Source: a bacterium (GTDB lineage Bacteria > Patescibacteriota > Minisyncoccia > Phycocordibacterales > SBAW01). Taken from it: a stretch of 51,974 bases of DNA. Of the stretch, positions 8,403-20,085 are shown piece by piece (position 1 is the first letter of the stretch; the number at the start of each line of letters is the position of its first letter). Under the pieces are notes generated by a model. It saw nothing but the letters and a program-made list of their open reading frames with translations. It had not been told where the DNA came from and did no database searches. The stretch is taken from the NCBI GenBank assembly GCA_005239955.1, contig SBAW01000024.1:1-51974 (forward strand). The letters are read 5' to 3'. Made by a program: the position numbers and the translations under genes.

Positions 8403-8490
8403 GTCACGCATCATTTTCTGCTGAAAATGTGCGCGACCCCGCCTCGTCTGCCTTCGCAGACTCCGGCTGCAAAACACTCCGTGTTTTGCC
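8403..8490 (-). repeat. Family B structured element inserted in the outer 5S relic
   Basis: GCAAAACAC-GGA-GTGTTTTGC hairpin, then GCCGGAG-stem-CGAGGCGGGGTCGCG-stem-CGTGAC, the same core as the efp and rpsR copies. Confidence 0.8.
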
Positions 8491-8670
8491 CCCACCGCCA
8501 AACCACCAGATTGAAGCACTGAAAAACAACACACATTATTGCGATTCTCACGTTCCCAAGTGGGATCGGATCATTAGTACTCCTTGGCTAAGCGCGTTAC
8601 CGCGCGTACACCGAGAGCCTATCAACGTCATCATCTCTGACGATCCTTAACGATTCCTCATCTTAGGGTT

Positions 8671-8703
<33 letters not shown>

Positions 8704-8782
8704 ATTCCCGACTTAGCTACGAGGCGATGCCGTTGGCACGACAGCCCCCACACCAGAGGTCAGTTCATTCCGGTCCTCTCGT

Positions 8783-9605
8783 CACGTACATCCGACTTCG
8801 CTCAGTATCGTGAGCCTGTCGAACGATATCCCCCACTTTCATGGAGCGTAGACTATATCTTCTTCCGTCCGATAGGTATCGGCGAGGAAGGCGGCATCTT
8901 ACCTGTATGAGCCGTCGCTCTCTGTGGAGCGATTCGCCGTCATACAAGTCCGAGTGTCTTTCAACTCAAGTCGTTACGGGGTCAAACCAAGAACCGTAAG
9001 CAGCTCTGGTAGCGTTCTTTTGCGCCTTGTTGCGTAATTCTCATTTTGAATCACGAGCATAAGCGCCGCTAACCGTCTCAGCTGCTTTTCACCTAGCTTT
9101 TTGTGTGGAGATTCAGAAAGAATATGTGCCGCCGTATACAGGGCACGTGCTTGCGCACGTTTAAACCGTATATGCGGCATGAGCATACGGAGTATGTTCC
9201 GTACTTGGGCATGCCCGTTTACTCGGAGCTCGGTCATGCCGTCGTTTCGTCTTGAAACGTAGCCGATACCAAGCACCTTTTGAATCCAATACAACTCTTT
9301 TTCATGCCGAGTATCTTGATAGAAGCAGATCGTAGTCATGAAGCGTCGCTTCAGGGCTCCATCTTTTCGCTTTTTGATTTGGAGCATCAGACTACCATCG
9401 CCATCAAGAAAACCGGCAATGTACGCTAGGGATGTTTTTGGTCGACTTCCCACGGTATTATCGTATCGCTTTTCTGGTCCTCAAGCAAGTCTCTTATCCA
9501 CGGACTAGGGGGATAAAAGACTCTCGGACCAAAACGCGATAGACGACTTCACCGTTATAAGCCGCATTGTCATCGCGCATCTCTGCGCGAAGTAGCAATT
9601 TATTT
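8783..9605 (-). mobile_element. Group I intron in the sarcin-ricin loop (after U2656 equivalent) with a LAGLIDADG ORF
   Basis: Removing 8783-9605 restores CTAGT|ACGAGAGGACC. The 5' exon ends in U and the intron ends in G. R-like CGTAACGACTT and S-like AAGATATAGTC elements are present. Confidence 0.88.
8974..9453 (-). CDS. Intron-encoded single-motif LAGLIDADG homing endonuclease
   Basis: YIAGFLDGDGS motif; 159 aa; lies inside the 23S intron. Confidence 0.92.
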   Translation of the reverse strand: MGSRPKTSLAYIAGFLDGDGSLMLQIKKRKDGALKRRFMTTICFYQDTRHEKELYWIQKVLGIGYVSRRNDGMTELRVNGHAQVRNILRMLMPHIRFKRAQARALYTAAHILSESPHKKLGEKQLRRLAALMLVIQNENYATRRKRTLPELLTVLGLTP

Positions 9606-9668
9606 ACTAGGAACGAATCCCTTCAAGAATCAACGCCTGCAGTAGATAGGAGACCAACCTGTCTCACG

Positions 9669-17586: not shown

Positions 17587-18462
17587 TCAGGAAGGGGCGC
17601 GAGGGCTCCGTGTTACCGCATCGCTAAACCGAGCCACACGGACCATTTGCTCTACATCGTGAACTCGGACAATATCAGCCCCTCGATCAATCGTGAGAGC
17701 AACTGCGGCTCCTGTCCCCTCAAGCCGCTCTTCCATCGGGAGATTAAGCGTATACCCAACAAATGATTTCCGCGATGGCCCCACGAGAAGCGGAAATCCG
17801 AGGGATCTAAATTCGTCTAACCGGTTGATAATTTCGAGATTTTGTTCGACGGTTTTCCCAAACCCGAGCCCCGGGTCAACGATGATGCGGTCGGACGAAA
17901 CTCCGGCCCTAAGAGCCCACGATACCGACTCCATGAGCTCGCGTTTAATATCTTCAATAAGGTTTTCATACACAACTCCCACATATCTGCCTCCCAGTTT
18001 GTTTTCTTGCTCAGCATCTTTTGGGCGACTGCGATTGTGCATAAGCACGAGGTAGACACCTGTTTCTGCCGCCACTTTTGCCACTTCTCTATCCATGCGA
18101 AGTCCCCACACATCATTAATAATCTGTGCTCCTACCGCGACGGCCTGCCGCGCTACTTCCGCTTTGTAGGTATCAATAGAAATAGGGACGTTGATGGTGC
18201 GCGAAAGTTCACGAATAACCGGAATGACACGCGCCAACTCTTCCTCGAGGGACACGGGAGTTCCTCCTGGTCGCGTTGACTCGCCTCCGACATCAATGAT
18301 GTCAGCGCCCTCTTTCACGTGCGCCTGTGCTTGCGCCAGAGCGTTCGCTACCACATCGCCTGAAGACGTCATGACGCCGTCGCCTGAAAAAGAATCGGGA
18401 GTAACGTTCACGATCCCCATCACATACGTGCGCGTGCCCCACGAAAAGAGCGGCTCTTTCAT
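17587..18462 (-). CDS. folP: Dihydropteroate synthase
   Basis: MGIVNVTPDSFSGDG, DVGGESTRPG, ISIDT, DPGLGFGK, SRKSF, RVHDV. Start at MKEPL overlaps the folK stop. Confidence 0.96.
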   Translation of the reverse strand: MKEPLFSWGTRTYVMGIVNVTPDSFSGDGVMTSSGDVVANALAQAQAHVKEGADIIDVGGESTRPGGTPVSLEEELARVIPVIRELSRTINVPISIDTYKAEVARQAVAVGAQIINDVWGLRMDREVAKVAAETGVYLVLMHNRSRPKDAEQENKLGGRYVGVVYENLIEDIKRELMESVSWALRAGVSSDRIIVDPGLGFGKTVEQNLEIINRLDEFRSLGFPLLVGPSRKSFVGYTLNLPMEERLEGTGAAVALTIDRGADIVRVHDVEQMVRVARFSDAVTRSPRAPS

Positions 18463-18953
18463 AGAGAAATACCGGCAGGCCAGACCTGTCTGTGCCAATT
18501 CCCGAGCCCATCCAATAGTTCTTGTACTGTTTTCTTGCTTGGAAGAAGCACGAGCCGAGGATTAAGGTCGCGAAGCGGCACCAACACAAACGCACGTTCA
18601 GAAATTCGAGGATGAGGAATAGTTAGTTCATCTGTCTCTATGCACTCCGACCCATAGAACAAAATATCGATATCAATAACGCGAGGGCCGAAACGCTCTC
18701 CCGCTTCGCGCCCGAGCTTCATTTCTATGTTCTTTGCTTCCATGAGAAGCTCTCGCGGAGAATAAGTGGTAACGCCCTGACACACCATGTTGTAAAAAGC
18801 AGGCTGGGTGGTGAGATAGAGTGGTGCAGTTTCATACAACGGAGAGAGACGCTCAATCGTGACATGAGTCCCAAGGGCCGTCAGCGCTTGTTGGATGTTT
18901 TTCATCCGGTCACCAAGATTTGAGCCGAGGGCGAGATATACCGTTTCGGTCAT
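18459..18953 (-). CDS. folK: 2-amino-4-hydroxy-6-hydroxymethyldihydropteridine diphosphokinase
   Basis: YLALGSNLGDR, GPRVIDIDIL, IPHPRISERAFVLVPL. Confidence 0.97.
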   Translation of the reverse strand: MTETVYLALGSNLGDRMKNIQQALTALGTHVTIERLSPLYETAPLYLTTQPAFYNMVCQGVTTYSPRELLMEAKNIEMKLGREAGERFGPRVIDIDILFYGSECIETDELTIPHPRISERAFVLVPLRDLNPRLVLLPSKKTVQELLDGLGNWHRQVWPAGISL

Positions 18954-18979
18954 GCGTAGCTCATAGTAGCGACCGAAGA

Positions 18980-19019
18980 AAAAGAAAACAACCGCGAACG
19001 GGCGGTTGTTTTCTTTTTG
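18980..19019. terminator. Bidirectional-type intrinsic terminator after the rplJL operon
   Basis: AAAAGAAAACAACCGC-loop-GCGGTTGTTTTCTTTTT. Confidence 0.75.
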
Positions 19020-19035
19020 CCTGCGGCTGCAAGGT

Positions 19036-19191
19036 CTACTTTAATTCGACCTTGCCACGTGTTTTCTATTCGCCGTCGCTCATAGAAACTCGCGGCCCCA
19101 CCTCACTTCTGAGCCCTACTGGGCTCAGCCTGCGGGCGTTCCGGTCGAAAAGTCCTCTAAAACAACTCCGTTATTTTAGCTCGACTTTTCC
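19036..19191 (-). repeat. Family B element with a duplicated rplL 3' end
   Basis: GKVELK* is encoded at both 19171-19191 and 19036-19056. An antisense segment lies at 19143-19166, and the core reads GAGGTGGGGCCGCG...CGTGGC. Confidence 0.85.
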
Positions 19192-19569
19192 ACCCGCAGC
19201 TTCAATCTTTTTCTTGATTTCTTCAGCCTCTTCTTTCTTTACCCCTTCCTTGAGGTTTGTCGGAGCGCTATCAACAAGATCCTTTGCTTCCTTAAGACCA
19301 AGGGCAAGTGCCTCTTTCACTACCTTAATAACTTGGATCTTCTGTGCTCCCCCATCCGCGAGGTGAATCGTAAAGGAGCTCTTTTCCTCAGCCGCTTCAG
19401 CCGCCGCTGCCGGTGCGGCAACCGCAACCGCCGCTGCCGAAACACCAAACTTCTTCTCAAGCGTCTTCACGAGTTCGTGAAGCTCGAGGACTGACATTTT
19501 CTCTACCTGGTCGATGAGTGCTTTGAATTTCTCTGGCACTTCAACCGTTACCTGTGCGTCATCTGCCAT
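19171..19569 (-). CDS. rplL: 50S ribosomal protein L7/L12
   Basis: [49 protein letters not shown]. Confidence 0.98.
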
Positions 19570-19590
19570 AACGTTATTGTTTGCTGTTAA

Positions 19591-20085
19591 TTAACTGCCG
19601 CGTTTCTCTCTCATCCGATCAAGCGCCACGACAAAACCCTTAAGCGGCGAATTGATGAGGTAGACAAACTGTGTAATAAGCGAGTCGCGAGACGGAATGG
19701 TTGCGACACTCATAATGGCGGGCTTATCCATGTAGCGTCCTTCAAAGACACCGCCAAGGAGCGAGAGCACGCCCTCCACCTTCTTACCGAAGGCAAAGAC
19801 TTCACGTGCAGGCGCCACCTGATCGCTGTCGCTCCACGCAAGAGCAAGTTCGCCCGGAAGCTCTGGCTGATTTCCTTCGTAGGACATTTCGCCAAGCGCT
19901 TTCTTAATGAGGGTCTTTTTTGCGACGAGGAACCGCACCCCATTCTCGCGAAGCTTACGGCGCAACGCCGTAATGTTCCCGATCGTGAGGCCATGGAAAT
20001 TCACAAACGCAACCGCCTGCGCACCCGAGAGCGCGCCGCGGACTTTGTCAAGAATCTCCACTTTCTTTTGTTTATTAACTGCCAT
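19591..20085 (-). CDS. rplJ: 50S ribosomal protein L10
   Basis: GLT...LRRKLR, VAKKTL, LLGGVFEG; directly upstream of rplL. Confidence 0.96.
   Translation of the reverse strand: MAVNKQKKVEILDKVRGALSGAQAVAFVNFHGLTIGNITALRRKLRENGVRFLVAKKTLIKKALGEMSYEGNQPELPGELALAWSDSDQVAPAREVFAFGKKVEGVLSLLGGVFEGRYMDKPAIMSVATIPSRDSLITQFVYLINSPLKGFVVALDRMREKRGS

Follow-up and report, generated by a model that had tools for sequence, protein, structure and literature searches.

The rplL locus and its two 3' ends

The window, by which I mean the whole 51,974-nt stretch of DNA that was analysed, carries rplL on its minus strand. The gene is an uninterrupted open reading frame with the full N- and C-terminal Pfam domains of ribosomal protein L7/L12 (Table 1). 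In the rplL reading frame, a GGT codon precedes the last seven codons (copy 1), and a second version of these seven codons (copy 2) sits 135 nt further downstream on the minus strand. Both copies translate to GKVELK followed by a stop. Six of the 21 bases differ and all six differences are silent, affecting five third-codon positions and the first position of the CTA/TTA codon. A doubled rplL end with six synonymous differences had been described in a first-pass annotation of this DNA, and reading of the minus strand confirms it. The same annotation held that a dead local duplicate would not stay purely synonymous. Simulation bears this out: in 200,000 sets of six random substitutions, the frequency of an all-silent outcome was 5e-6 when copy 1 was taken as the starting sequence and 2.5e-5 when copy 2 was.

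Table 1. Coordinates of the features of the rplL locus and of the two other family members in the window
Feature	Position	Strand	Basis or remark
rplL coding sequence (ribosomal protein L7/L12)	19171..19569	-	ORF listing; Pfam PF00542 and PF16320; the last seven codons are copy 1
Copy 1 (C1), GGA AAA GTC GAG CTA AAA TAA	19171..19191	-	functional rplL end; 5' strand of P1; putatively brought in by the element
P1 loop, CGGA	19167..19170	-	fold
Antisense arm (3' strand of P1)	19143..19166	-	fold; pairing energies
Conserved core: junction CCGGAA, branched P2 hairpin, GAGGUGGGG, P3 (GCCGCG...CGUGGC), P3 loop GAGCGACGGCGA	19054..19148	-	covariance model
Copy 2 (C2), GGC AAG GTC GAA TTA AAG TAG	19036..19056	-	untranslated; first codon overlaps the 3' strand of P3; putative displaced earlier rplL end
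Short arm GACCTTGC, antisense to GCAAGGTC of copy 2, then AGCCGCAGGC, which resembles a core start	19019..19036	-	by eye
Hairpin and U run, read as operon terminator	18979..19018	-	fold; consensus scan without flag
Second family member, 33 nt downstream of the efp (elongation factor P) stop codon	33586..33674	+	model R1
Third family member, 23S-5S rRNA spacer, ~50 nt upstream of the 5S rRNA	8403..8470	-	model R1

The sequence that separates the two copies includes an arm which, as had been proposed, is antisense to copy 1: the computed pairing energy is -21.8 kcal/mol with copy 1, compared to -11.3 kcal/mol with copy 2. Copy 1 and the arm are the two strands of a helix (P1), and the core that follows matches the family covariance model with a score of 46.9 bits (E ~1e-9). 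The 226-nt stretch containing the locus has a predicted folding energy of -109 kcal/mol (z = -8.9), and none of 200 shuffled sequences folded as well. In the same fold, a 17-bp hairpin followed by a U run lies 3' of copy 2. The earlier annotation placed the operon terminator after copy 2; the hairpin and the U run, read here as this terminator, are present in the fold, whereas a consensus promoter and terminator scan of positions 18700-19700 flagged nothing. By eye, the GACCTTGC and AGCCGCAGGC segments found between copy 2 and this hairpin are possibly the stump of an older, mostly deleted element, and copy 2 may itself, on the same visual evidence, be the relic of an older insertion.

Contigs produced by another assembler, probably from the source sample, contain positions 18700-19700 in one piece at ~55x, with an identical sequence and no joints. 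This argues against an assembly slip, although the sample is probably the same and not an independent one. Of the sequencing runs listed, only these contigs contain the locus, and no RNA run does. A third run from the same study contained only short rplL pieces from other organisms. No near-identical rplL was present among the relatives and metagenome contigs searched. The rplL genes of the relatives align only up to copy 1, with a best identity of 79-83% over part of the gene, and because none is close enough the native copy cannot be assigned from them. Codon usage does not discriminate between copy 1 and copy 2 in this respect.

A conserved core behind tRNA and housekeeping genes

The insert between the two rplL ends belongs to a large and apparently undescribed family that sits behind tRNA and housekeeping genes in ultra-small (CPR) bacteria. 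The element of the rplL locus spans ~150 nt, counted from copy 1 through the core; sizes in the family range from 100 to 250 nt, and no gene is contained. The family consensus core, GCCGGAG...GAGGCGGGGUCGCG...CGUGACC, forms a three-way junction that can be reduced to a minimal core of 65 nt. A core-start variant, GCCGCAG, occurs in other copies of the element. The 5' strand of P1 consists of the last 10-25 nt of the upstream gene, with the stop codon or, at tRNA genes, the 3' end of the tRNA among them. It is connected to the arm by an apical linker, which is CGGA in the window and, behind tRNAs, often a hairpin flanked by A and U runs. A linker hairpin with loop AAACUGCUUU and varying stems was found in 25 of 114 copies, as against 3 of 114 in the downstream control, and this enrichment upstream of the core indicates that the linker is part of the element. 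The arm is followed by one to three unpaired bases. Next come P2a (GCC/GGY, covarying to GGC/GCC), an internal loop (GGA/GA), a variable P2b hairpin and a GG. P3 (GGUCGCG.../...CGUGACC) includes a variable inner hairpin and an almost invariant G.U pair, and the second gene-end copy starts immediately 3' of it. A kissing interaction between an ACUGCU loop and AGCAG loops of P2b or P3, noticed by eye in a few copies, fitted only some of them and was discarded.

The secondary structure is strongly backed by covariation. RNAalifold applied to a MAFFT alignment of 27 copies gave 18 pairs, 11 of which display compensatory changes. Over 114 distinct copies, in an alignment that was fitted to the model and therefore favours the structure somewhat, 96.5% of the cells pair (73.2% after shuffling, 32-46% after sliding) and 455 cells carry double changes (124 after shuffling). 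One G.U pair is kept in 112 of the 114 copies. The retention of G.U pairs points to a constraint on one strand, which is the sense strand of the upstream gene. A conserved G.U pair and a GA-rich internal loop look more RNA-like than DNA-like, a feature that counts against reading the family as insertion elements.

The 716-kb genome from which the window comes contains 19 copies of the element (covariance model R1, E <= 0.01). Thirteen of them are located 29-239 nt behind a tRNA or tmRNA gene on the same strand, namely ten tRNA genes, two of which have two copies each, and the tmRNA gene. The remaining six lie behind efp, topA, rpsI, rplL and the terminator of a hypothetical gene, and in the 23S-5S rRNA spacer. 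The efp stop codon is located in a hairpin with an ACUGCU loop. A BLAST-type search of the element in its own genome had returned the self match only, a misleading result given that the covariance model later revealed 19 copies. All the copies that were closely examined are oriented like the upstream gene.

The family extends well beyond this genome. The core motif GAGGYGRGGYCGCG was detected in 153 of 301 genomes sampled from the order, with ~376 matches compared to ~15 for a reversed control pattern. The model gave 119 matches in the collected loci, corresponding to 117 distinct copies, 77 of which have a tRNA gene on the same strand within 200 nt upstream. An even sampling of the phylum gave matches in 6 of 151 genomes, four of these being outside the order. 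Model-confirmed copies are present in records titled Paceibacterota, Kaiser-, Adler-, Zambryski-, Nomura- and Yonathbacteria, and also in records titled Minisyncoccia, Saccharibacteria and Berkelbacteria and in two Elusimicrobia bins; among named public genomes, a few other phyla gave weak model hits only. Part of the window insert (positions 19098-19063) matches loci other than rplL in two genomes (G001 and G004), where the same core is found behind tRNA genes. The arm of these loci is antisense to the tRNA segment that runs from the T-loop to the acceptor, and is followed by the core and then by a repeat of that segment. In G071, the core and the next 14 nt are common to two copies whose arms differ, which requires an added assumption such as gene conversion between arrays.

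Doubled rplL ends also recur. An insert followed by a second rplL end is present in G035, in G036, where it forms a tandem array, and in G038. Among 99 further rplL ends (19 from relatives and 80 from metagenome contigs), seven are followed by a second end, three with the core described here (G035, G036, L112) and four with unrelated inserts (L094, L097, L108, G038); in this count L137 (IWLK* 239 nt downstream) was left out as spurious and G038 (L012) was added by eye. The unrelated insert behind rplL of G038 is single-copy by BLAST in G038, G036 and G071. The rplL end of G007, one of the 19 relatives, is not duplicated. Rfam 15 gave no relevant match to the window element at E <= 10 or to six other loci at E <= 1, and none to four loci with other cores; in the literature, titles and abstract beginnings yielded no description of such an element. 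What emerges looks like a new and widespread type of miniature integrative element among CPR bacteria.

Origin of the two gene ends

In 63 of the 117 copies, a repeat of the upstream gene end begins at the last base of the core. At tRNA genes the repeat extends from C56/R57 of the T-loop to the discriminator or to CCA. Two repeats extend identically into the non-coding spacer, over 30 nt (L078) and 41 nt (L234). Repeat length varies from ~9 to 75 nt with no fixed ruler, and the 75-nt repeat of topA (25 codons) places the insertion point well inside the gene. Other species have empty sites at orthologous positions: the topA site is filled in this genome (G000), G002 and G029 and empty in G027, G004, G030 and G028, while the tRNA-Tyr site is filled in G257 and empty in G187. 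In G089, tRNA-Tyr is inverted relative to its neighbour. The tRNAs upstream of elements are intact according to ARAGORN. Behind tRNAs, the second copy often lacks a terminator and the linker that follows copy 1 is often terminator-like; at these sites, insertion may occur downstream of the native terminator. The contigs of the probable source sample contained no excised circle, excision product or empty-site joint.

Comparison of the paired ends bears on which of them was imported. Ten repeat pairs at protein genes, totalling 80 codons, comprise 24 identical, 49 synonymous and 7 non-synonymous codons, so that 49 of the 56 differing codons are synonymous; in all ten pairs (10 of 10) the differences are nearly all silent. 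The topA pair of this genome differs at 27 of 75 bases, with 18 synonymous and 3 non-synonymous codons. Divergence at silent sites combined with a like protein indicates that both copies diverged as working gene ends, in different lineages, and that one of them was imported. When the fit of the arm was compared at sites where the copies differ (n = 26), copy 1 fitted better in 13 cases and copy 2 in 3, the fit being equal in 10. The arm and the first copy consequently seem to travel or evolve together. Second copies, for their part, show non-synonymous changes (K>E in L112, F>L in L097 and, by reading, about six in topA of G002) and decay, with a 1-nt deletion in the tRNA-Lys copy of G001 and a tRNA-Tyr copy of G257 cut to 12 nt. 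In rplL, topA and rpsI of this genome, a terminator-like hairpin follows the second copy. Judging from these sequence comparisons, copy 1 probably arrived with the element, the incoming unit comprising copy 1, loop, arm and core, and copy 2 is probably the displaced native end. One of the two readings put forward in the first-pass annotation, import of copy 1 from another genome's rplL, is favoured by the recurrence of the layout, the synonymous pairs, the arm fit and the position of the terminator-like hairpin. I therefore regard the doubled rplL end as probably the two edges of a ~150-nt non-coding insertion that brought in a replacement gene end.

A model of the event can be sketched as follows. 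A small integrative element, non-coding and non-autonomous, would be bounded on the left and on the right by the two rplL ends as its junction repeats, and would consist of the last codons of the target gene, an arm antisense to them (P1) and the three-way-junction core. The element would enter rplL a few codons before the stop and complete the gene with its own copy, while the old end, pushed downstream beside the old terminator, would no longer be translated. The six silent differences would reflect the separate histories of the two copies, each a working rplL end in a lineage of its own, and this in turn implies horizontal transfer of the element with its replacement end. This part of the model, an insertion element with an imported gene end, is likely to be right. 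The data directly show the family, its fold, its range of targets, the repeats and the occupied and empty sites, whereas the choice of the imported copy is deduced from them.

How integration takes place is a more speculative matter, and the scheme preferred here is a tentative one. The layout is as expected if a small element, circular or folded, brought along a copy of the gene end and recombined through it with the chromosomal gene, plausibly by one crossover of the Campbell type located at the repeat's 5' edge, beside the conserved end of P3. The recombining form might be a folded single strand in which the arm and the gene copy rebuild a duplex that mimics the target; a single-stranded form offers the simplest account of the arm. 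Alternatively, the arm could serve as a guide. An extreme version of this idea, which I consider unlikely, makes the three-way junction the active part of a programmable mobile element, the arm reading the target by base pairing, in the manner of an intron guide sequence or a bridge RNA, and the junction either catalysing strand transfer itself, as a small ribozyme acting on RNA or single-stranded DNA, or recruiting a housekeeping recombinase. The enzyme may act in trans, and one may guess at a host recombinase or at recombination following DNA uptake.

A survey of candidate enzymes mostly counts against the insertion-element reading. No recombinase ORF was found within or beside the paired copies inspected. 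Two PF00589 genes, encoding XerC/D-like recombinases, are present in this genome, both on other contigs, whereas neither a reverse transcriptase (RVT_1) nor an IS110-type DEDD recombinase (PF01548) was found in it (91.6% complete). Y1_Tnp gave two hits. Across genomes, the Y1 (IS200/RAYT) transposase is weakly associated with the element (counts 100/53/80/68, odds ratio 1.6, p = 0.047, uncorrected for relatedness), and it is absent from 53 of the 153 carrier genomes, including G071 (one contig), with seven motif matches, and G111, with nine. A GIY-YIG ORF that follows one copy in L081 was treated as a coincidence. In viral contigs, a 14-mer was found in at least 119 stretches, but only one of the 80 loci examined (L254) contains a true copy by the model; since the neighbours of this single match are, from a reading of their ORFs, host-like housekeeping genes, no phage vector was found.

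The RNA-like traits of the core suggest another interpretation, in which the core is primarily a functional RNA that forms part of the upstream transcript at its 3' end. It could, for instance, be a ribozyme capable of self-cleavage or ligation, could help to process or stabilise the transcript, or could serve as a guide or scaffold. The arm would then be the target-specific helix of this RNA, and the repeats a by-product of its spread by a process that resembles reverse splicing or is guided by RNA. The strong covariation applies to the sense strand only, the G.U pair kept in 112 of 114 copies being a C.A mismatch on the other strand. The junction with its GA-rich internal loop, the ~25 conserved nucleotides, as in small ribozymes, and the orientation shared with the upstream gene in all closely examined copies point the same way, as does the location of the rplL element between the stop codon and the terminator-like hairpin, where it is presumably transcribed with the operon. 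Conversely, no Rfam family matches, ribozymes included (E <= 10 or <= 1), and the genome has yielded no reverse transcriptase. Moreover, many tRNA sites display a terminator-like hairpin and a U run between the tRNA and the arm, so that most transcripts would stop short of the core, and the patchy, multi-copy distribution and decaying second copies are typical of selfish DNA. On balance, the functional-RNA interpretation is improbable.

A further proposal does away with a dedicated recombinase altogether and lets the element spread by DNA uptake and homologous recombination. Both crossovers could take place inside conserved sequence, because the insert is flanked by the gene body on the left and by the second copy on the right, and both flanks are indeed conserved gene sequence in every case. 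That the copies are allelic versions from different lineages, that no recombinase is linked to the element and that the repeats, ~9 to 75 nt long, obey no fixed ruler are all as expected from such a process. However, the homology on the right-hand side is often just 9-20 nt, which is very short for RecA-type recombination, and the arm, the conserved core and the sharp, constant junction right after CGUGACC are left unexplained. Spread by uptake and homologous recombination also seems unlikely.

The first-pass annotation had offered, as its other option, that both rplL ends are used. On this view the element would be removed at the RNA level like an intron, or bypassed, and copy 2 would stay under coding selection. 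The full synonymy of copy 2 with copy 1 in the window would agree with this, removal from GGT to GGC would yield the same protein, and at tRNA genes the junction and the start of the second copy fall at the same tRNA position. Yet copy 1 already ends with an in-frame stop, no known intron family matches in Rfam, and elsewhere second copies have changed at the protein level (L112, L097, G002, and topA of G000 at 3 of its 25 codons), have suffered a deletion (tRNA-Lys of G001) or, in the case of tRNA-Tyr of G257, are cut down to 12 nt. Use of both ends is thus unsupported and very improbable. Finally, two similar 21-mers lying 135 nt apart on one contig of a metagenome-assembled genome could in principle be a drifted local tandem duplication or a chimera of two strains, an explanation that is barely credible in view of the all-silent differences (about 1 in 1e5 under dead-copy drift), the membership of the intervening sequence in a family with 119 model matches, the same layout in other genomes and the identical, joint-free contig obtained at ~55x by a second assembler, probably from the same sample.

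If the insertion-element reading is true, CPR/Patescibacteria genomes of 0.5-1 Mb carry up to ~20 gene-free integrative elements, and essential genes (tRNAs, tmRNA, rplL, rpsI, efp, topA) are entered without being broken. The elements would mark horizontal exchange among uncultured CPR lineages. They would also account for the odd, partly duplicated gene and tRNA ends met with in CPR assemblies, a possible source of annotation errors. The way in which a ~100-nt element finds and recombines with dozens of different sites would constitute a puzzle that can be tested by means of the 65-nt minimal core. The element also occurs in records titled Saccharibacteria, a group that includes cultivated members. 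Should the guided reading be true, a ~100-nt gene-free element would retarget to any conserved gene end and repair the gene that it enters, which would amount to a new class of integration guided by nucleic acid, and this in the smallest bacterial genomes.

Comparison with known integrating elements

Integrase-bearing elements that generate repeats of 12-54 bp holding the exact 3' end of rplL, of tRNA genes and of others are described in PMC4701971. ICEs, IMEs and prophages with a tyrosine integrase share with the present family their targets (the 3' ends of tRNA, tmRNA, rplL and rpsI genes), the direct repeats of gene ends, the completion of the gene by element sequence and the tandem stacking (PMC4701971). 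The family examined here inserts at 3' ends with gene-end repeats (63 of 117 copies; rplL, topA, rpsI) and keeps its target genes intact, as judged from the rplL ORF and, for tRNAs, from ARAGORN. By contrast, the ~150-nt element of the window has no ORF and hence no integrase inside it. Unlike ICEs, IMEs and prophages, the element is gene-free, possesses a folded core and a site-specific arm, and occupies dozens of sites per family. That dozens of unrelated target sequences are used by one family, a range not known for any single classical integrase, counts against the insertion-element reading. Integrase-less derivatives of integrative elements are known as CIMEs. In Escherichia coli, phage 21 and e14 are prophages that, by means of their own integrase, replace the 3' end of icd with a version that is mostly synonymous with the native end. 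The likeness to the rplL case is that an integrating element supplies an alternative 3' end to a protein gene; neither an antisense arm nor a folded core is known for the icd-replacing prophages.

Among small non-coding elements, MITEs, REP/RAYT sequences and IS200/IS605 derivatives resemble the family in being multi-copy, hairpin-rich, mostly intergenic and, as is proposed for the family, mobilised in trans. Unlike MITEs, the element has neither terminal inverted repeats nor a short fixed target duplication, and its repeats of 9-75 nt are anchored to gene ends: its right end is CGUGACC, its left end is gene sequence, and its inverted segment is internal and site-specific. Kinship with IS200/IS605 or REP/RAYT elements fits poorly with the lack of Y1 in 53 of 153 carriers and with the presence of long repeats. 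Elements of these two kinds insert beside a fixed site of 4-5 nt and do not duplicate their target, and no common tetranucleotide was seen at the non-tRNA targets of the family.

Parallels to the arm come from systems in which a folded or complementary segment specifies the site. In the integron attC site and in attP(+) of CTX-phi, inverted segments of a single strand pair into a target-like duplex. In both cases only one strand conserves the structure, and arrays build up as further insertions occur at the regenerated site. The arm and the gene copy of the element are predicted to form a target-like duplex, and the G.U pairs suggest that one strand matters. The stem of the element is, however, variable and target-specific while the rest is conserved, unlike in attC, and, in contrast to both systems, boxes of the IntI or dif-like type were not seen, and gene ends take the place of attI or dif as targets. 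Group I and group II introns, through their IGS and EBS, and IS110 elements, through their bridge RNA, also carry a segment complementary to the insertion site. Unlike group I and group II introns, the element is far too small and has no Rfam match; IS110 bridge RNAs work with a recombinase family (PF01548) that was not found in this genome (91.6% complete). The complementary segment of the element, like theirs, varies from copy to copy, and what sets the element apart from both introns and IS110 is that it duplicates its target.

Unrelated inserts at the rplL end

Inserts of 90-160 nt are present in four rplL genes that belong to other CPR genomes or contigs. Their sequences are unrelated but their layout is shared: a hairpin spans the stop codon, a structured middle part follows, and then comes a second end of rplL. 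An Rfam match was obtained for none of the four. In most relatives, an MxDTLxKLFG... ORF directly follows rplL, whereas in the window folK- and folP-like ORFs lie between the two; the region downstream of rplL has therefore been rearranged in the window's lineage.

Features discussed in the text, with their coordinates
Feature	Location	Strand	Position or motif
Unrelated rplL insert	L094:1873-1990		
Unrelated rplL insert	L097:1873-2030		
Unrelated rplL insert	L108:1861-1995		
Unrelated rplL insert	L012:1391-1490		
folK- and folP-like ORFs	window 17587-18953	(-)	
Inverted tRNA-Tyr	L174 = G089:C3, about 112800-112970		
Small GIY-YIG-type ORF	L081:181-438		YVYVLK...GYSG...; directly between family A copy and next tRNA gene
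159-aa ORF, LAGLIDADG-type motif	window 8974-9453	(-)	LAYIAGFLDGDGS; between the two 23S parts

Elements and inversion behind tRNA genes

Behind a tRNA-Gly(ccc) gene (locus L086:480-830, from G300:C13), the whole 149-nt element unit is perfectly duplicated in tandem and followed by a truncated third unit. Either repeated insertion or unequal crossing-over may account for the growth of such arrays.

Another small element, family B, unrelated to family A, likewise lies behind tRNA genes (loci L074-L076, L083 and L084; genome G071). Its arm comes first, followed by GCCCGAUUGAG...CCAAUCGGGGUACUGAACCUGUAAGGUUC and by a repeated copy of the 3' part of the tRNA. It is often stacked with family A copies.

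In genome G089, tRNA-Tyr and its terminator are inverted relative to the same neighbour gene in G257 (L067) and G187 (L173), and a tRNA-end-like fragment adjoins the inverted gene. This arrangement hints at inversions occurring at these T-loop sites.

Endonuclease-type ORFs

The position of the GIY-YIG-type ORF next to a family A copy is treated as coincidence; ORFs of this type are reportedly common in CPR genomes. In the 23S rRNA gene of the window (region considered, about 8560-9609, (-)), the Rfam match ends at 9609, and 23S-like 3' sequence resumes beyond that end, near 8560-8700. With the LAGLIDADG-type ORF between the two parts, the interruption looks like an intron carrying a putative homing endonuclease.
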